The notes below the pieces were generated by a model. The model was not told where the DNA came from. It made no database searches and worked only from the letters and a program-made list of their open reading frames with translations. The position numbers were made by a program, and so were the translations under genes. Positions 1,437-40,696 of a stretch of 64,000 nucleotides of DNA are shown piece after piece (position 1 is the stretch's first letter; each line of letters opens with the position of its first letter). Source of the stretch: Escherichia phage vB_EcoM_PHB13; the sequence record MK573636; one strand, given 5' to 3'.

Positions 1437-3680
1437 ATGATTAAAAATGTTGTTAAGTCTTCCGGTCTGACTGTTCCGTTTGAAAAAGAAAAAGTAATGA
1501 AAATTCTGGAAGCGGCAGCCGAAGGTCATAACGTTGATCCATATGAATTGTTTGATATGGTTGAACCACTTCTGACAGAAGGTATGTCTACCAATGATAT
1601 CCAGAAAGTATTGATTAAGGTCGCCGCAGATAACATTACTGTAGAAACGCCTGATTATCAATATGTAGCAAGTAACCTTGCAATGTTCGCTCTTCGTAAA
1701 TCAGTATACGGTCAATTCCAACCGATTGATTTTTATAGCCATATTGAGCGTAATATTGCAACCGGAAAATATGATCGTGAAATTCTGCAAAAGTATTCCC
1801 GTGAAGAAGTGGAATATCTGGAGAAATTCATCGACCATAAACTTGATTTTAAAATGACCTATGCTGGTGCGATGCAGTTAAAAGAGAAATATCTTGTTCA
1901 GGATCGCAGCACTAAGAAAATCATTGAAACACCGCAATTTGCGTATATGCTGATCGGTATGTGCTTGCATCAAGAAGAGACAGAAAATCGACTTGAACAT
2001 GTGATTGATTTTTATAATGCTGTTGCGAATAAGCAAATCTCTCTGCCTACTCCGATTATGGCAGGTGTGCGTACCCCAACACGCCAATTTAGTTCGTGTG
2101 TGGTGATTGAAAGTGATGACTCATTGCAGGGCATCAACGAAACAGCAAATGCAATCATCAAGTATATTAGCAAGCGTGCTGGTATCGGTATCAACGCTGG
2201 CATGATTCGCGCGGAAGGATCTAAGATCGGGCATGGTGAAGTTCGTCATACTGGCGTTATCCCATTCTGGAAACATTTTCAGACTGCCGTTAAGTCATGC
2301 TCACAAGGCGGTATTCGTGGCGGGGCGGCGACTCTCTATTACCCAATGTGGCATTTAGAGTTTGAAAGTCTTATTGTGTTGAAGAACAATAAGGGGGTGG
2401 AAGATAACCGCATTCGTCATCTTGATTACGGCGTACAGATTAATAACCTGATGGTAGAGCGATTCCTTAAACGGGATTACATTACTCTGTTTAGTCCAGA
2501 TGTTGCAGGTGGCTTGTTGTGGGATCTGTACTTCCGAGATGAGGAAGGTTTCCGCCAGCTTTACGAAAAACTGGAAAAAGATCCGAGTGTTCGTAAAACT
2601 CGTGTTAAAGCCGAAGACCTGTTTTTAGCGGTGGCAATTGAACGTTTTAACACTGGTCGAATCTATCCAGCGTTCACAGACAACATGAACAATCACGGGG
2701 CGTTTATTCGTAATGTAGCACCGATTAAACAATCCAACCTGTGTTGTGAAATTGCTCTGCCGACAAAACCGATGGGTCGTGATGATTCAGAGATCAGTCT
2801 ATGCACTTTGGCAGCATATGTTTTAGGAAACTTTGATATCGAAAATATGGAAGAAGTAGAACGCATTGCTATGGTTATGGTGCGTGCACTTGACAACCTG
2901 TTAGATTATCAGGATTATCCTGTAGAACAAGCTCTGACAGCCAAAAAACGTCGCTCTCTGGGTGTTGGCGTGACTAACTTTGCATCGTATCTCGCGGATA
3001 ATTTCTTCACATATGAAGACGCTAACGAGTTTACGCATAAAACGTTTGAACGCTTGCAATATGCTCTGATTAAGGCTAGTGTGCAACTAGCAAAAGAGAA
3101 GGGTACTTGCGAACTGATGCACGAAACACGTTATGGTCGCGGTGAACTGCCTATCGACTGGTACAAAAAGACAGTAGATGAACTGGTTGATCCGGTGTAT
3201 GAGATGGATTGGGAAGAACTGCGCGAAGACCTGAAAAAATATGGCATTCGTAACAGTACGCTTTCGGCTCTGATGCCTTGTGAGTCGTCTTCTCAGGTAT
3301 CTAACAGCACAAACGGTATTGAACCGCCTCGCGGGATTGTATCGGTTAAAGGATCAAAGGAAGGACAATTTAATCAGGTTATTCCGAACGTAGAGAATAA
3401 TGCTGATGTTATTGACCTGCTTTGGACACTGATCAAGAAAGGTAACAAGCCTTATCTGACACTGGCAGCGATTATGCAGAAGTTTGTAGATCAGGCGATT
3501 AGTTCCAATACATCCTATGATCCAAGCACTTATAAGACTGGTAAAGTCGATATTGCTGATGTGTTAGATGATATGTTGTTCGCTCAACATTACGGTCTGA
3601 AAACCCTGTATTATGCGAACGTTCGCGACGGTGCAGATGGTACGGAAGACGCTAGCGAGTGCTCATCTTGCAAGCTGTAA
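1437..3680 (+). CDS. nrdA: ribonucleotide reductase class Ia large subunit
   Basis: 747 aa; active-site NLCCEIALPT motif, C-terminal CSSC redox pair; strong Shine-Dalgarno GAGGT; T4 synteny td-nrdA-nrdB. Confidence 0.93.
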   Translation: MIKNVVKSSGLTVPFEKEKVMKILEAAAEGHNVDPYELFDMVEPLLTEGMSTNDIQKVLIKVAADNITVETPDYQYVASNLAMFALRKSVYGQFQPIDFYSHIERNIATGKYDREILQKYSREEVEYLEKFIDHKLDFKMTYAGAMQLKEKYLVQDRSTKKIIETPQFAYMLIGMCLHQEETENRLEHVIDFYNAVANKQISLPTPIMAGVRTPTRQFSSCVVIESDDSLQGINETANAIIKYISKRAGIGINAGMIRAEGSKIGHGEVRHTGVIPFWKHFQTAVKSCSQGGIRGGAATLYYPMWHLEFESLIVLKNNKGVEDNRIRHLDYGVQINNLMVERFLKRDYITLFSPDVAGGLLWDLYFRDEEGFRQLYEKLEKDPSVRKTRVKAEDLFLAVAIERFNTGRIYPAFTDNMNNHGAFIRNVAPIKQSNLCCEIALPTKPMGRDDSEISLCTLAAYVLGNFDIENMEEVERIAMVMVRALDNLLDYQDYPVEQALTAKKRRSLGVGVTNFASYLADNFFTYEDANEFTHKTFERLQYALIKASVQLAKEKGTCELMHETRYGRGELPIDWYKKTVDELVDPVYEMDWEELREDLKKYGIRNSTLSALMPCESSSQVSNSTNGIEPPRGIVSVKGSKEGQFNQVIPNVENNADVIDLLWTLIKKGNKPYLTLAAIMQKFVDQAISSNTSYDPSTYKTGKVDIADVLDDMLFAQHYGLKTLYYANVRDGADGTEDASECSSCKL

Positions 3681-3748: not shown

Positions 3749-3916
3749 ATGACCAAATTAAAATGTGTTGCTGTAGATTTTGAGCTAGCTGATAGCTTTG
3801 TTGTCGGTGATGTATATGATGCTCGACATGATGGGACTTGCTACTACGTTGAGGATGAATACGGCGTAGAATGGGCTATTCTTCCTGATGATAAATGTTT
3901 TGAGGTTGTCGGATAA
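3749..3916 (+). CDS. small hypothetical protein (55 aa)
   Basis: ATG after GTGAGGA SD downstream of promoter at 3689; ORF-track start 3686 lies inside the promoter and is rejected. Confidence 0.5.
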   Translation: MTKLKCVAVDFELADSFVVGDVYDARHDGTCYYVEDEYGVEWAILPDDKCFEVVG

Positions 3917-4089
3917 TGGCTACTGTATGGTTATTGATTGCAATCAGCAATTCAATGTATAATTACGGAAATATGTCAAGCATTGAGTTTGCAACAAAGC
4001 AGGATTGCGTTAAAGCTCGCGAGGTTATCCGCGAAGACAATAAACGCTTTATGAATCTGTACTGTGTTGAAAAGCAGAAGGTGAACTAA
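3916..4089 (+). CDS. small hypothetical protein (57 aa), tandem paralog 1 (MATVWLL...)
   Basis: ORF below 60-aa track cutoff; N-terminus MATVWLLIA; SD GGATAA; paralogous to next ORF. Confidence 0.45.
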   Translation: MATVWLLIAISNSMYNYGNMSSIEFATKQDCVKAREVIREDNKRFMNLYCVEKQKVN

Positions 4090-4256
4090 TGGCTACAATA
4101 TGGTTATTGCTTTCCGTTAGCGTAGGCGTATATAATAAAGGAACTGTTACCAGCGTAGAGTTTTCATCACATCAAAATTGTTTTGAAGCTGTGCAGGAAT
4201 TGCAGCAGGATAGCGAAATAAACAGAAATACTAAGTTCTTTTGTGTTAAAAAGTGA
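4089..4256 (+). CDS. small hypothetical protein (55 aa), tandem paralog 2 (MATIWLL...)
   Basis: Start overlaps previous stop (TAATG); shares MATxWLL, SVEF and FCV/YCV motifs with preceding ORF. Confidence 0.45.
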   Translation: MATIWLLLSVSVGVYNKGTVTSVEFSSHQNCFEAVQELQQDSEINRNTKFFCVKK

Positions 4257-4271
4257 TAGTGAGGTGAATTA

Positions 4272-5435
4272 ATGAGCGTATTTAATCGTGAACATGTTGA
4301 TATTATGAATGAACCGATGTTTCTGGGTAGTGGGTTGGGTATCGCTCGCTATGATATTCAGCGTCATCAAGTATTTGAAGAATTAATTGAAAAATCTCTG
4401 TCATTTTTCTGGCGTCCAGAAGAAATTTCACTCGCAACCGACCGTATTCAATATCTTAATATGTGTGACGTTGAAAAGCGTTTCTTTACCGAAAACTTGA
4501 AGTATCAGACATTACTTGATTCTATTCAAGGTCGCGCACCGTCCGCAGCATTTGGTCCAATTGTATCTGATCCGACTCTCGATACATGGTTGCAAACATG
4601 GACATTCAGCGAAACGATTCATAGCCGAAGCTATACACACATTATGCGTAACTGTTTCATTGATCCGGCTAGTGAGTTCGACCAGATCATCGATAACCCT
4701 GCTATCATGAAGCGAGCGGAATCTATCGGGCAATATTATGATGATGTTCTGGTGAAAATCCGTGAATACGAGGACGCTAAAGAAAGTTTTAGTCGTTCTT
4801 CTGAAAATGAATTTGACCTTGATGCATATTCTGATAGCATTTCGTACGTGGAAGAAACTAAACGCAATCTGATGGACTCACTCTATCTGTGTATGCATTG
4901 CGTTAATGCACTGGAAGCAATCCGTTTTTATGTGTCCTTTGCATGTACTTTCAGCTTTGCCGAACGTGGTTTACTGGAAGGTAACGCGAAGATCATGAAA
5001 TTTATTGCGCGTGATGAACAACTTCACTTAAAAGGAACACAATACATTATTCGTCAATGGCAAACGGGGGCTGATGGTGATGAGTGGAAACAGATTGCGG
5101 AAGAACTTGAAGACGAAGCAACGAAAATCTTTCTGGATGTTGTCGAGCAAGAAAAAGAATGGGTAGATCACTTATTCGCAATGGGGGCAATTCCTGGCTT
5201 GTCACCGGAAATTCTGAAAACCTATGTAGAATACCTGGCAGATTCCCGTATGCGTGCTGCCGGACTGAAAAGCCCGTTTAGTGTTCGTCGTCATCCGTTA
5301 CCGTGGATGCGTAAATGGTTGAACTCTGACGAAGTACAGAATGCAGCGCAGGAAGTAGAGATTATGTATCTGGTATCTCAGGTTAATACCGATTTAACAG
5401 ACGACGACTACAACCGATTCGGGAAATATCTATGA
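4272..5435 (+). CDS. nrdB: ribonucleotide reductase class Ia small subunit
   Basis: 387 aa; di-iron ligand motifs (ETIHSRSYTHI, EAIRFYVSF...ERGLLEGN); uninterrupted (no intron). Confidence 0.92.
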   Translation: MSVFNREHVDIMNEPMFLGSGLGIARYDIQRHQVFEELIEKSLSFFWRPEEISLATDRIQYLNMCDVEKRFFTENLKYQTLLDSIQGRAPSAAFGPIVSDPTLDTWLQTWTFSETIHSRSYTHIMRNCFIDPASEFDQIIDNPAIMKRAESIGQYYDDVLVKIREYEDAKESFSRSSENEFDLDAYSDSISYVEETKRNLMDSLYLCMHCVNALEAIRFYVSFACTFSFAERGLLEGNAKIMKFIARDEQLHLKGTQYIIRQWQTGADGDEWKQIAEELEDEATKIFLDVVEQEKEWVDHLFAMGAIPGLSPEILKTYVEYLADSRMRAAGLKSPFSVRRHPLPWMRKWLNSDEVQNAAQEVEIMYLVSQVNTDLTDDDYNRFGKYL

Positions 5436-34758: not shown

Positions 34759-36261
34759 TTAAATCTCGATGGTTTTCGTGACATATTCGAATCGATCGGT
34801 GTTGTAAATTTTTATTCTTTCAAGGGCATGTTTAAGAGCATAATTAAGGTGACTAAACTGTTTCTTAGCATTCTTGCTCTTTGTCTTCACCGCCAGATGA
34901 TCTATAAGATCCCAGACCGTTGCAATATCCTTAGAACCATGTTTACGCAATGCACGACCGATACTCTGACGAACGATAGTTGATTCCTTCACTGGATGAC
35001 CGAAAATAACATGGTGCAAATTCTTAATTGAAACACCAGTAGAGAACACACCATAGGATGCAACACAAATGATCCCGGTGTCACCCTCCGCCATTTTCTT
35101 AAATTCATCACGTTCTTCTGTCTTAACTCCACCGTCAATATAATAAACCTTGTCGTGTACCTTCTGTAACGCGTCATACATAAGTTTTCCGTGCTTAGTA
35201 TTGCGGAACATCAGGAATACGTTTTCTCCCTTCTTAGCGAGTTTTAGCGCCAAATTGCAAGCAAACTTATTACGTCGTGGGTTAGATGTAATATACTTGA
35301 TCTCTTCCGCATATTCTCTCCCCTTAACCGCGCTACATTCCTCATCGGTATAACGAAGGAAAAGACAGTTAATTTTCAGTTTTGTCACTTGCCCTTCTTC
35401 CATCAGGCGGTCAATACTCACGATCTTAGAAATATCACCGAAAAGCCCGACATACTGCATCATGTTAGCTTTCCCGTCACGAGGGGAACCAGTCATACCG
35501 ATCTTAAATTGGCAATGATCCATATCAGTAACGATGTTTAGCAGGTTTTTAGCAGTGGCTTTGTGACATTCGTCAACAATAACCATCCCAAATTGCTGGA
35601 ACCACTCACGAGGTTGTTTACATGCAGATTGCCACGTACTAACAACGATCAGGCGATCACCTACGTGTTTACTAGTACCGCTCATGATAGTATGAATTGC
35701 TTCATAAGGAAACTGGCGATAATCAACAAAGTCATCACGCATTTGCAGCACTAGCGACGTGGTAGGAACGATGATCAACACTTTCCCTTCGTAGTTCTCT
35801 AAGTACCAACGAGACAACATACAAGCAATCGCAGATTTACCAGCGGACGTAGGCAAAACTAACATACGGCGTTTATGATGAATACCTTCAAAGACGGCCT
35901 TTGATTGATACCAATGAGGGGTGATCCTGTTATCACCGGAATATAATTCTAAGTCATTACACCATTTTGTAATTTCTTCTTCTGTAACTTGTTCTTTTTC
36001 GAATAAGCGAGGATCTACCCATACGCTATAGCCCATATTTTTAGCGAAGATTCCCACGGTTTTAGTTAGGCCGATTGGCAGCTTTCCGTTGTAATCTAAA
36101 AGACGAATACGCCCATCCCATCCACCATACTTAAATCTTTTTTGAAACCGCGCTCCCTCGACTTCAAAACTAAAATAATCTCGCATTTCTAATAAAATTG
36201 AATCGCTACATTCAATTTGAACATGGGAGTAGTTCAGAAAGTGAATTTTAATATCTTGCAT
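34759..36261 (-). CDS. uvsW: UvsW DNA helicase (SF2)
   Basis: Walker A LPTSAGKS, DECH box MVIVDECH; N-terminus MQDIKIHF matches T4 MDIKVHF, so ATG at 36259-36261 preferred over track GTG at 36276. Confidence 0.88.
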   Translation of the reverse strand: MQDIKIHFLNYSHVQIECSDSILLEMRDYFSFEVEGARFQKRFKYGGWDGRIRLLDYNGKLPIGLTKTVGIFAKNMGYSVWVDPRLFEKEQVTEEEITKWCNDLELYSGDNRITPHWYQSKAVFEGIHHKRRMLVLPTSAGKSAIACMLSRWYLENYEGKVLIIVPTTSLVLQMRDDFVDYRQFPYEAIHTIMSGTSKHVGDRLIVVSTWQSACKQPREWFQQFGMVIVDECHKATAKNLLNIVTDMDHCQFKIGMTGSPRDGKANMMQYVGLFGDISKIVSIDRLMEEGQVTKLKINCLFLRYTDEECSAVKGREYAEEIKYITSNPRRNKFACNLALKLAKKGENVFLMFRNTKHGKLMYDALQKVHDKVYYIDGGVKTEERDEFKKMAEGDTGIICVASYGVFSTGVSIKNLHHVIFGHPVKESTIVRQSIGRALRKHGSKDIATVWDLIDHLAVKTKSKNAKKQFSHLNYALKHALERIKIYNTDRFEYVTKTIEI

Positions 36262-36297
36262 AGCGAATAGCCTCACTCAATAAATACAGTATACAAA

Positions 36298-36305
36298 TAT
36301 TTATA
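36298..36305 (-). promoter_or_regulatory. late promoter -10 box TATAAATA upstream of uvsW
   Basis: Exact reverse-complement TATTTATA 37 nt upstream of corrected uvsW ATG. Confidence 0.5.
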
Positions 36306-36331
36306 CAAACACCCCCAATCAGGAGAATAAC

Positions 36332-37057
36332 ATGTTTGATAAAGAATATTTCGAAGAACTCCGCGCTATTGCGGCGTCCGACGACAAAGAAGCACAGAAA
36401 ACCGCTAAAACAGAATTAGCGGACTACGCGAAACAATTTGATATTAAGGTCAAAAAGACGTTCTCACTAGAGAACATGATCGAGTTCGTAGAAACCGAAT
36501 TAACTAAACTGGCTTCCGAAATGGAAGAAGAAACTCCGGCAGAAGGAACCAGTATTAACGATCTTATTCTGGCAGCAGACACCGCAGATGATAAAGTGGT
36601 ATTCGACGAAGTTGATCCGTCTCTGGTTGAAGCAATGAAAGAACCTGAGATCGTCATTGAAGAAACAAAAGAAGAATCTCCAGCAGTTGAACCAGTGGTC
36701 GAAGAAGTTAAGTCAGATGTTGAAGAAGCACCGGAAGTTAAAGTGGAATCTCCGGTAGCCAACATTTTCTCTAACGAAGCAGAGCATCGTTCCCCAGCAC
36801 ATGACACTGATTCATTTTGCGATCTTACCGGCTTCCGTCCGACCATTTGCTTGATCGGTGGCGGTCGTGGTTACTACTCCTGCCCGTGGTGGATTTTCGA
36901 CTGGATCGTTAATACTCCAGATTGGAAGAAGTATCCAGAGCGTTTCCCGCACGCGTATGTACACGACACCCTCAAGTCACTGATCTATTATATCAAACGC
37001 GATGGGTCTGTCAAGGTGCGAGAGACTAAACATAGCCAATTCCACACACTCAAGTAA
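36332..37057 (+). CDS. acidic low-complexity protein with Hoc-like C-terminal motif (possible Inh homolog by synteny)
   Basis: E/P/V-rich linker; C-terminal CPWWIFDWIV resembles Hoc GWWVFDEIV; between uvsW and hoc. Confidence 0.45.
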   Translation: MFDKEYFEELRAIAASDDKEAQKTAKTELADYAKQFDIKVKKTFSLENMIEFVETELTKLASEMEEETPAEGTSINDLILAADTADDKVVFDEVDPSLVEAMKEPEIVIEETKEESPAVEPVVEEVKSDVEEAPEVKVESPVANIFSNEAEHRSPAHDTDSFCDLTGFRPTICLIGGGRGYYSCPWWIFDWIVNTPDWKKYPERFPHAYVHDTLKSLIYYIKRDGSVKVRETKHSQFHTLK

Positions 37058-37322
37058 TTTTTGGGTGATAAAAGTTGTGAAATATTTGTTATACTTTTAA
37101 TTGTAGTTCCGTTATGCAATTAAAAAGAGGATACTACATGTCTAACAAAATCAATGTATTACATCAAACAGAACAAATACCCAGACGAGATCGATACTAT
37201 TTCGGCCTCGTTGCATCACTATTCTAATACTCATGTATTGGAATCTCGCAATGGTTATCTGGTTGATGACAATCAACTATTTCAATTAATTAAATTCGGA
37301 TTTTCGATGGGAGTGGCTTTAT

Positions 37323-38537
37323 ATGGCTTTCACAGTATCAATACAATCTAACAAAAGATGTTTTCTTGCTGGAGATGGTTTCACCTTAACGGCGACTGTA
37401 GCGGGTGACGAACCATTACCCAGCAATTTGACATATACATGGACAAAAGACGACCAACCGCATGAAAATAGCACAGCTACGCTAACTGTAGCAGACGCAA
37501 CAAGTGAAAATGCGGGTAGCTATAAAGTAACGGTACAAGATACCGATACGACGGAATCAGTAGAATCTGAAGTTTTCCTCATGGAAGAAGCTGAATTAAT
37601 CGTAAATATCACCGAACCGCAGCATTTCTACGTATCATCACAAAAAGACGTAGAATTACATGCAACAGTAAATTTTTCTGGTGGGAAGACCCCAGCAGAC
37701 AACTATGAACTACATTATAGTTGGAGTAAGGGCGAAGACGTTATAGACACAAAACAGGATATTACAATCCAAGAATTTACAGCAGATAAAAACGGCGTGT
37801 ATACTGTAAAAGTGTGGGGTGAGTCGGAAGATTCAGCCGCTAGCGCATCGACTAAAATCATGCTGGCAACAATGAACGTAGATCAGGATGTGGTGGAATC
37901 AAAGACCGTGGCACTAGGTAATGAGATCTTACTTAATTATGTTGTGTCAGAGGACATTGTAGGCGATTCTAGCGGTATGCCTAATTTGACGATCAAATAT
38001 AACTGGTATTTGCAGCGCGAAGGGCAACCGTCACCGACTCTAATCGGTAGTGAGGTCGGCGAAGCACTGGAAGGATTTTCTATCATGCCAGACGGTCATC
38101 TGTTCAAAGAGAGTGCTACTTACGATGACACAGCCAAATTCTGGTGTGTTGCTAAACTATATCAACAGATCGAAGATGAAACAGTAGAAGTTGCAGCAAG
38201 TACAAGCCGAAAATGTTCAATGGAAGTTGTTAAAATGTTTCGTTACGTACACCCGATCCCGTGGCGCAAAACTTCATTTATCTACATTGGATGGTGGGTA
38301 TTTGACGAGATTGTTAAATTCAATGAGGCTGGGTTAGAGTGGCGTGATCGAGAAGTTTATTCAACCAGCAAGTACGCCAAAGATCTGGAGACAATCGCGG
38401 CAGCGGAAGAAAAATATAGTGATTGCACTTGCATGGAATCTCGCAATGGTTTCATGTATCATTCCAAAGAGTTACATAAACTGGACCGAGATACGTTAGA
38501 GCGAGTTCTACGCATTCGTGAAACGCATCCTGCTTAA
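37323..38537 (+). CDS. hoc: Hoc outer capsid decoration protein (Ig-like domains)
   Basis: Ig-like repeats; C-terminus matches T4 Hoc (YVHPIPWR, GWWVFDEI, ESRNGF). Confidence 0.8.
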   Translation: MAFTVSIQSNKRCFLAGDGFTLTATVAGDEPLPSNLTYTWTKDDQPHENSTATLTVADATSENAGSYKVTVQDTDTTESVESEVFLMEEAELIVNITEPQHFYVSSQKDVELHATVNFSGGKTPADNYELHYSWSKGEDVIDTKQDITIQEFTADKNGVYTVKVWGESEDSAASASTKIMLATMNVDQDVVESKTVALGNEILLNYVVSEDIVGDSSGMPNLTIKYNWYLQREGQPSPTLIGSEVGEALEGFSIMPDGHLFKESATYDDTAKFWCVAKLYQQIEDETVEVAASTSRKCSMEVVKMFRYVHPIPWRKTSFIYIGWWVFDEIVKFNEAGLEWRDREVYSTSKYAKDLETIAAAEEKYSDCTCMESRNGFMYHSKELHKLDRDTLERVLRIRETHPA

Positions 38538-38548
38538 TGAAATCTATC

Positions 38549-38576
38549 AGCCATCCTTCGGGGTGGCTTTTTTGTT
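38549..38576 (+). terminator. rho-independent terminator (AGCCATCC-TTCG-GGGTGGCT + T6)
   Basis: Read directly after hoc. Confidence 0.75.
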
Positions 38577-38584
38577 TTTAGTGC

Positions 38585-38612
38585 TTGACAGAGCGATTTA
38601 GATGCCTATAAT
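38585..38612 (+). promoter_or_regulatory. sigma70-type promoter TTGACA-N16-TATAAT
   Basis: Direct reading. Confidence 0.55.
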
Positions 38613-40108: not shown

Positions 40109-40696
40109 ATGTTTGACCAGTTACAAGATCTATTTGGAGTAAAACCACTTCGTAGATGTGCTCTTATAGGCTCTAGAAAAGCGCCTAACGACATTTTGAT
40201 AATGGCTAGTACCATTGGGAGGGTATTGTCAGAAAATCGCGTTGTAGCGCATTCTGGAGGGGCTTACGGTATGGACAATGCTTTCATGAAGTATTACGAC
40301 CCAGATTATAGAAAAATTTTCATTCCAAATTGGAAGTTTTACGATCATAAGCATAATGGTCGTGATGTGATTGCGTGGCAGACTCTAGAGCAAAAGAATC
40401 TGGCGATGGATGAATTAGAACACGTTTATGATAATCCTCGTTCTATACCGTTATACATGCAAAATCTGTTTTCTAGAAATGTTGCTCAAGTCTTAGGTGA
40501 GACACTTGATGATCCTGTAGATTGTGTGTTATTTTGGGCGAAAGAAGTTAATGGAATCGTTTCGGGAGGAACTCGAATTGCTGTCTATATTGCTCGTAGA
40601 CATGGGATACCATGTTTTAACTTATATCATCAAGAAAATAGATCCGCCGTCGAAAAAATATTGGGCGGATCTGACTTGTCTTGGTTAGATATTTAG
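40109..40696 (+). CDS. SLOG-superfamily (DprA/Smf- or LOG-like) Rossmann-fold protein
   Basis: ALIGSRKAP, AHSGGAYGMDNAF, NLFSRNVAQVLG, NGIVSGGTRIAVYIARRHGIPCF match DprA/LOG signatures from memory; convergent with gene 24. Confidence 0.45.
   Translation: MFDQLQDLFGVKPLRRCALIGSRKAPNDILIMASTIGRVLSENRVVAHSGGAYGMDNAFMKYYDPDYRKIFIPNWKFYDHKHNGRDVIAWQTLEQKNLAMDELEHVYDNPRSIPLYMQNLFSRNVAQVLGETLDDPVDCVLFWAKEVNGIVSGGTRIAVYIARRHGIPCFNLYHQENRSAVEKILGGSDLSWLDI

Follow-up and report, generated by a model that had tools for sequence, protein, structure and literature searches.

A predicted Hoc-type capsid-binding domain in the prohead-protease inhibitor Inh, and the apparent scar of a second hoc gene, in a Krischvirus phage

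The inh-hoc locus of Escherichia phage vB_EcoM_PHB13 (sequence record MK573636, from which a stretch of 64,000 nucleotides, the window, was analysed) very probably derives from a three-gene family, inh, hoc2 and hoc, built on one capsid-docking module. On this reading hoc2 has been deleted down to a remnant in the spacer between its neighbors, and an exact 18-nucleotide (nt) repeat shared by the remnant and hoc corresponds to the codons of one loop of the module, ESRNG; Inh itself may dock on the capsid through the module. The locus comprises inh (36332..37057, + strand; a 241-aa open reading frame, ORF), a spacer of 265 nt between inh and hoc, and hoc (37323..38537, + strand; 404 aa), which is annotated as hoc in Phi1, JSE and RB49. 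A preliminary description of the locus had joined a WW motif common to Hoc and the 241-aa protein with the recurring 18-mer, as signs of one shared or partially duplicated capsid anchor. These are two separate phenomena that were conflated.

Hoc provides the reference for what follows. The product of 37323-38537 consists of Ig-like domains (Pfam Ig and PKD matches) followed by a C-terminal capsid-binding domain (aa 300-404; 38220..38534, + strand) that has both the WW helix and the ESRNG loop. The profile of this C-domain finds T4 Hoc among PDB sequences at E = 3.5e-40, and in its AlphaFold2 (AF2) model the order of elements is beta1, beta2, helices, beta3, beta4. The two Hoc motifs quoted in the preliminary description are indeed present, GWWVFDEIV at aa 323-331 (38289-38315) and ESRNGFMYH at aa 372-380, with the ESRNG codons at 38436-38450. 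ESRNG is the conserved Hoc loop that touches the center of the gp23* capsomer, and the C-domain of T4 Hoc has no structural relative in the PDB according to its authors (Fokine et al. 2023, PMC10385173). Hoc binds expanded capsids only, and on their outside (PMC9546572).

By its sequence relatives, the 241-aa protein is Inh, a full-length orthologue of the T4-type prohead-protease inhibitor: full-length tblastn matches are found in 1422 phage records, phrog_1051 is matched at E = 2e-76, the Pfam domains are PF26097 (Phage_Inh_N) and PF26098 (Phage_Inh_C), and the gene sits between uvsW and hoc, as in T4-type phages. Tequatrovirus Inh is ~43% identical, has the same two domains and occupies the same uvsW-hoc position; there is no structural difference from T4 Inh, and the novelty lies in interpreting Phage_Inh_C as a domain of the Hoc type. 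(T4 Inh is known, from annotation, as an inhibitor of the gp21 prohead protease and a minor protein of the head.) The protein as a whole is acidic, as the preliminary description had it (isoelectric point, pI, 4.6; 52 aspartate and glutamate residues), its N-terminal part and linker having a pI of ~4 and its last 80 residues a basic pI of 9.3. It does not, as had been stated, end in CPWWIFDWIV, which lies at aa 184-193 (36881..36910, + strand), 48 residues before the C-terminus. This motif belongs to a C-terminal domain, aa 160-241 (36809..37054, + strand), in which the predicted order of elements is beta2, WW helix, DW turn, long helix, beta3, loop, beta4. A Pfam scan of Inh for an Ig or PKD domain found none; with no Ig-like string, and with Phage_Inh_N and an acidic linker as its N-terminal part, Inh can be thought of as sharing a domain with Hoc without being a Hoc. 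In the Inh of RB43 (306 aa; extracted locus 2326-3246), four tandem acidic units of ~35 aa (LVPDVVVDVSQDFMDYVKDVAPEVADQIK...) occupy the linker, implying that linker length varies by repeat expansion; the C-domain of RB43 Inh is 60% identical to that of the window.

That Inh's C-terminal domain (Inh-C) is, as a whole and beyond the WW motif, a diverged homologue of the Hoc capsid-binding domain (Hoc-C) is well supported by profile comparison and structure prediction. The profiles were made from the Inh and Hoc proteins of eight further diverse phages together with the window's own (9 Inh and 10 Hoc C-domains). In hhalign the two align over 61 columns with Prob 97.4 and E = 1.5e-11; the score of the real pair is 63, and those of the controls (reversed, and 20 column-shuffled) range from 7 to 16. 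Three features are aligned between the families, WWxxDxI, DW(K/R) and the ESRNG loop (E-T/S-R-N-S in Inh), and they are collinear: PWWIYDWI of Inh with GWWV-DEI of Hoc, PDWK with G-DWK, and RE(T/S)RNS-F with QESRNGY. In the window's proteins, CPWWIFDWIV aligns with GWWVFDEIV, and the Inh segment ETKHS (aa 231-235; 37022..37036, + strand) with the Hoc ESRNG loop. Within a single genome, that of Aeromonas phage GomatiRiver_11, the similarity is evident even to BLASTP (E = 8e-10, 30% identity over 56 aa), the alignment running from the WW helix (IPYWVYDWM/VPYWVYDWM) to ESRN. When the Inh-C hidden Markov model (HMM) is compared with all PDB sequences, the top match is T4 Hoc, residues 297-359, at E = 0.024. 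Thus, the domain sharing suggested in the preliminary description stands, and extends to the entire C-domain.

Structure prediction leads to the same protein. An AF2 model of window Inh aa 152-241, built on an alignment of Inh sequences only, has a predicted local distance difference test score (pLDDT) of 87 and a predicted template-modelling score (pTM) of 0.76. Among 350,542 PDB chains searched with Foldseek, the top match to this model is 8t1x_X, which is the C-domain of T4 Hoc on the gp23* capsomer (prob 0.92; template-modelling scores, TM, 0.58/0.55). All remaining PDB matches have TM <=0.36 and prob <=0.10, leaving 8T1X as the only credible PDB match of the model. The predicted fold of Inh-C is a small beta-sheet packed on helices, as in 8T1X, although the Foldseek E-value of that match is only 0.15. 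A search of BFVD with the same model returns Inh at ranks 1-5, and the named entries at ranks 6-29 are mostly Hoc or outer-capsid proteins, with prob typically >=0.98 for these latter matches.

The modest E-value of the 8t1x match is one of several results that weigh against the homology, or against a common function. The window's own Inh and Hoc are aligned by BLASTP only over the 8 residues of the WW motif, at a non-significant E = 0.056, so that the pairwise alignment that had been proposed as a check goes against the similarity for this pair, and significance is reached only through profiles, relatives or structure. The Inh-C HMM, run against 1.84 billion representative proteins, retrieves no Hoc at E <= 1e-3; its matches are ~100 Inh-like proteins together with a few artefacts from repeat proteins. 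Foldseek run in the opposite direction, from a Hoc C-domain model of lower quality (2-sequence alignment, pLDDT 73), finds few Hoc proteins and no Inh, and so tells little either way. The loop of the window's Inh is ETKHS rather than ESRNG (8 of the 9 aligned Inh proteins have E-T/S-R-N-S; the window's is the one that reads E-T-K-H-S). Finally, Inh-C is basic (pI 9.3) whereas the C-domain of T4 Hoc is acidic (pI 5.1; PMC10385173), so the binding partner or surface of the two could differ.

The short alignment of the window's own pair is what one would see if the likeness between Inh and Hoc were a short convergent motif (WWxFDxIV) instead of domain homology, and the weak PHROG cross-matches between the two families (E = 0.017 to 0.8) point the same way. 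We nevertheless hold convergence to be decidedly unlikely, since the collinear matches span ~60 columns that include DWK and E-S/T-R-N, the shuffle controls of the profile comparison are negative, and a separate line of evidence, the predicted structure, has the Hoc C-domain as its sole credible match in the PDB. Homology of the whole domain, the preferred reading, would then be of a kind that a plain HMM search misses and that only profile-profile or structural methods reach. The reach of such searches, which stops at Inh-like proteins, probably also accounts for Pfam keeping Phage_Inh_C separate and having no family for the C-domain of Hoc. Hoc in the same contig has Pfam Ig families only, with no connection to Phage_Inh_C, and a library scan of Inh and Hoc found no model for either C-domain in the copy of Pfam that was scanned. 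Searches of a protein database returned one fragment for the Hoc C-domain, four fragments for the Inh-C profile and, among the matches listed, only near-identical sequences for full-length Inh. No paper among those that could be searched links the Inh and Hoc domains; the homology between Inh and the capsid anchor of Hoc is apparently undescribed so far, although an earlier mention may exist.

The second phenomenon resides in the spacer. Krischvirus phages are T4-type myoviruses, and genomes of this genus such as Phi1, ECD7, GEC-3S, JSE and RB49 are 98-99% identical to the window over 36300-38600 (98.7% for Phi1). A few members of the genus have a further long gene between inh and hoc, and by comparison with these the spacer stretch 37065-37285 reads as the deletion scar of that gene, designated hoc2, and as a pseudogene. 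Intact hoc2 specifies 846-847 aa and lies between inh and hoc in JK32 (MK962753), UPWr_E1, G2248, Brandy, SSG23 and SFHK24. It codes for multiple Ig-like domains and ends in a canonical Hoc C-domain (...RYVHPIPWRRTSFQYQGYWVLDEI...KYPDEIETIAASLHHYSNTHVLESRNGYLVDGTQLF, then the stop codon), so that the predicted product is a decoration protein of great length, in which numerous Ig-like domains precede a C-terminal domain shared with Hoc. The ancestral Krischvirus gene order is thereby read as inh - hoc2 - hoc. The preliminary description had suspected a second decoration protein at this locus; one appears to have existed, not as the 241-aa protein but as the product of a separate gene of 846 codons, now decayed.

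Among 58 Krischvirus records hoc2 is intact in 6 and reduced to a stump in 52. The stumps are of the RB49 type in 37 records, of the Phi1 type in 12, and of the RB49 type with one point change in the remaining 3 (the sequence of MIZ2 was examined; MIZ3 and MIZ6 give the same match). In the window ~2.4 kb of hoc2 are absent and ~220 nt remain. The 5' stump (37065..37173, + strand) retains the upstream region, the Shine-Dalgarno sequence, the start codon (ATG, 37138) and 12 initial codons (MSNKINVLHQTE), and is 95.5% identical to the start of intact hoc2 in UPWr_E1 and 91.5% in JK32. The deletion junction lies at CAGAA, 37169-37173. The 3' stump (37174..37285, + strand) consists of the last 36 codons (KYPDEIDTISASLHHYSNTHVLESRNGYLVDDNQLF), out of frame with the 5' stump and, when set against the 3' ends of the intact genes of JK32 and UPWr_E1, ~87% identical; the stop codon, TAA in hoc2, has become CAA at 37283-37285. 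The spacer peptide KYPDEIDTISASLHHYSNTHVLESRNGYLVDDNQLF matches the C-terminal end of Hoc phrog_1149 (E = 1.6e-6), and in tblastn it finds two Krischvirus records, JK32 and UPWr_E1, in each case at the end of a long annotated gene.

The designation as a pseudogene follows from the junction being out of frame, the stop codon lost and the constraint on amino acid sequence relaxed. In particular, among intact alleles the ratio of nonsynonymous to synonymous polymorphism (pN/pS) of the last 36 codons is 0.00-0.09, with synonymous divergence up to 0.74. The changes in the stump lineage do alter amino acids (E to D, A to S, G to D, T to N), and the stumps of the window and JSE differ at three nonsynonymous and no synonymous positions, one of these differences being an S to Y change (TCT to TAT) within ESRNG. 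No complete frame with Ig-like domains and a whole C-domain, such as an intact Hoc has, is present in the spacer. On the other side of the ledger, the pseudogene reading is one made from sequence, and the stump may still be translated.

The two forms of the stump suggest how hoc2 was lost. The Phi1 stump is 75 nt longer than that of the window; its junction coincides with a GACTTTA microhomology, after which comes a 1-nt frameshift. Removing one more stretch, between two CAGAA repeats, from the Phi1 form gives the stump of the window. The most parsimonious succession is therefore intact gene, then Phi1 type, then the type of RB49, JSE and the window. A ~2.3-kb deletion at GACTTTA, together with the 1-nt frameshift, would have generated the Phi1-type stump, and a 75-nt deletion between the CAGAA repeats would have converted it to the shorter form.

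Two small ORFs in the spacer are, on the same evidence, read as by-products of the hoc2 deletion. One, of 29 aa (37138..37227, + strand), arises from the change of frame at the junction; JSE annotates it as a hypothetical protein (EpJSE_00174). Phi1 has it too, lengthened by the additional 75 nt, as ORF168.1, which was listed among orphan genes as one that only Phi1 possesses (Arbiol et al. 2010, PMC2839356). The other, of 65 aa (37154..37351, + strand; RB49p168.2, phrog_32100), is in the original frame of hoc2, contains only the second half of the Hoc C-domain, and runs into hoc because the hoc2 stop codon has been lost. This second ORF might be a functional half-domain protein that competes for, or modulates, the Hoc site: its frame has stayed open in those stumps of RB49 type that were examined (window, RB49, JSE and MIZ2), it is annotated in some records and has a PHROG of its own, and its retained stump stretch is still 87-92% identical to intact hoc2 alleles. 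Such a role is nonetheless unlikely. Of the domain, beta1, beta2 and the WW helix are missing from the ORF; direct reading of the sequence before its ATG at 37154 found no Shine-Dalgarno sequence; the frame is closed by upstream stop codons in the Phi1 type and has lost its native stop codon; and every difference that separates window from JSE is nonsynonymous, with one falling in the loop. Most likely the 65-aa ORF at 37154-37351 is not a gene.

The 18-mer is readily placed in this framework. The sequence TGGAATCTCGCAATGGTT occurs exactly twice on the + strand, as the preliminary description had noted with starts only slightly displaced (~37236 and ~38433): the copies are at 37239-37256 and 38434-38451. 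In shuffled sequence the mean number of matches is 0.01, and none of 100 shuffles gave two. Copy 1 (37239..37256) contains the ESRNG codons of the hoc2 stump in the frame of the 65-aa ORF, and copy 2 (38434..38451) the ESRNG codons of hoc. Copy 1 does not belong to the acidic protein, to which it had been attributed, but lies 182 nt downstream of the inh stop codon, in the inh-hoc spacer.

Could the 18-mer be a functional DNA element, recombinational or regulatory, in which selection or gene conversion has maintained the identity? Outside the early-promoter cassette cluster, the window has no other exact direct repeat of at least 18 nt, and all five synonymous positions of the 18-mer are identical in the two copies. 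Both copies, however, are in-frame codons of a loop that is conserved at the protein level, the JSE stump copy is substituted (the TCT to TAT change already mentioned), and the identity is absent where both genes work: within the 18-mer, intact hoc2 alleles (4 of 4) read CGT where hoc reads CGC. Exact 18-nt identity is thus confined to the stump lineage and depends on one synonymous base atop a conserved loop. The synonymous sites flanking the 18-mer have diverged, and it provides no evidence of a recent partial duplication. A DNA element is accordingly a very improbable explanation, and we read the 18-mer as homologous codons of one conserved loop in a live gene and a pseudogene, with no role at the level of DNA.

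Because WW motif, stop codon and ESRNG codons succeed one another along the DNA in the order of a single domain, Inh and the spacer might also be taken for one split Hoc-like C-domain, with its WW half in Inh and its ESRNG half downstream, and between them a frameshift or readthrough by recoding. To this we assign almost no probability, for the alignment of Inh with every T4-type Inh extends from end to end, and Inh possesses an equivalent of the loop (RETKHS) itself, while the two ends of the spacer match the two ends of an independent gene of 846 codons. The match of the stump ends to an independent gene likewise led to the rejection of any split domain or programmed frameshift by which Inh, or the 29-aa ORF, would be connected with the frame of ESRNG.

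If Inh-C is a Hoc-type module, homology suggests what it might do. Inh would dock through this domain on the major-capsid-protein capsomers of the prohead, and docking would tether the acidic N-terminal part and linker where the gp21 protease can be restrained. The expected place of action of Inh is the unexpanded prohead, and Hoc sits on the outside of expanded capsids, which weighs against a common site: sharing of the module does not imply sharing of the docking site. With its basic charge, different loop and different stage of action, Inh may dock elsewhere. A more specific proposal is that Inh-C docks at the hexamer centers of the unexpanded prohead, at or near the later site of Hoc, tethering the inhibitor there, and that the site passes to Hoc after gp21 cleavage and expansion. 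We regard this as doubtful. Were it true, Hoc and Inh would represent two uses of one capsomer-center adaptor, and decoration proteins could derive from an assembly factor or the reverse.

The residues just before the Inh loop are [I/L]-R-E in most Inh proteins and V-R-E in those of the window (37016-37036) and RB43. The cleavage preference of gp21 is (L/I)-x-E, which [I/L]-R-E fits, and from likeness to this motif the [I/L/V]-R-E-[T/S]-R-N-S loop of Inh might serve as a substrate-like reactive loop, whether as a possible site of cleavage or as a pseudo-substrate. An N-terminal [LI]xE site resembling a capsid-targeting signal was considered as well and set aside; it is found at residue 9 in Tequatrovirus-like Inh and is absent from the Inh of the window.

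Compared with the C-domain of T4 Hoc (PDB 8T1X/8T9R; PMC10385173), Inh-C has the WW helix, the DWK element, in most Inh proteins the E-S/T-R-N loop, and the predicted fold, but it is ~20-25 residues shorter, has a pI of 9.3 instead of 5.1, has no Ig-like domains upstream, and has ETRNS, or ETKHS in the window, as its loop; hoc and the hoc2 stump of the window both have the canonical ESRNG. Second Hoc genes are known in Muldoon and PG7 (PMC10385173). Like these phages and JK32, the ancestral locus of the window would have had two decoration genes with one type of capsid-binding domain, but unlike their second Hoc, hoc2 of the window is a pseudogene stump of ~220 nt. The annotated 'hoc' of RB43 (extracted locus 4302-4487) is a 61-aa ORF with the first half of the capsid-binding domain only, and in Klebsiella phage Earwig (extracted locus 4576-5395) a Hoc with one Ig domain (177 aa) adjoins a 91-aa 'mini-Hoc' consisting of the C-domain only. 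These two cases show that the capsid-binding module exists apart from Ig-like domains and that hoc loci decay. In both the N-terminal half with the WW helix has been kept, whereas the stump of the window keeps the C-terminal half only.

Reading Inh-C as a Hoc-type module would widen the known reach of the Hoc capsid-binding domain and would provide a concrete, testable mechanism of recruitment for an inhibitor conserved in 1422 phage records. In a transposon screen of T4, inh and hoc behave as essential in that setup (bioRxiv 10.1101/2025.11.20.689424). The hoc2 remnants would record how, within a single genus, an accessory capsid fibre was lost step by step through microhomology, and annotation can be amended to match: Phi1 ORF168.1, JSE EpJSE_00174 and RB49p168.2 (phrog_19377, phrog_32100) would be pieces of a decoration gene that has been deleted, rather than orphans.

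Transcription signals surround the locus. Upstream of inh lies uvsW (34759-36276, - strand), which is faced by a canonical T4 late-promoter box, TATAAATA, at 36298-36305 on the - strand; on the + strand upstream of inh only a late box with one mismatch, AATAAATA, was seen, at ~36280-36287. A search for the canonical late promoter TATAAATA on the + strand between inh and hoc did not find it. The - strand has at 36987-37014 a sequence that matches the sigma-70 consensus perfectly (TTGACA-16-TATAAT, and TG upstream of it); it lies antisense within the 3' end of inh, and may be a chance match.

The 3' end of the inh-hoc transcription unit is marked by a terminator-like hairpin followed by a T-run (38549..38568, + strand). 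Directly after the hairpin, just 3' of hoc, comes a perfect TTGACA-16-TATAAT promoter (38585-38612), and this order of terminator and early promoter at 38549-38612 is the same arrangement as in early-promoter cassettes. Between 3678 and 22800 at least 9 copies of a 45-60-nt cassette precede small ORFs, each with a AAAAAGTTGTTGACA -35 box, a G+C-rich stem-loop, TATAATACA, and then GGAGAATCAA and ATG. In appearance these copies resemble the mobile early-promoter stem-loop ('PeSL') cassettes known for Phi1 and RB49, and hoc has been associated with PeSLs (Arbiol et al. 2010, PMC2839356).

Farther downstream, an ORF of 195 aa (40109-40696, + strand) has a GSR...SGGA-G-D motif and resembles, by eye, a 186-aa ORF of Aeromonas phage AS-szw (extracted locus 3805-4365) that is located two genes 3' of inh. 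The 195-aa protein is perhaps a relative of the DprA/Smf or LOG families.

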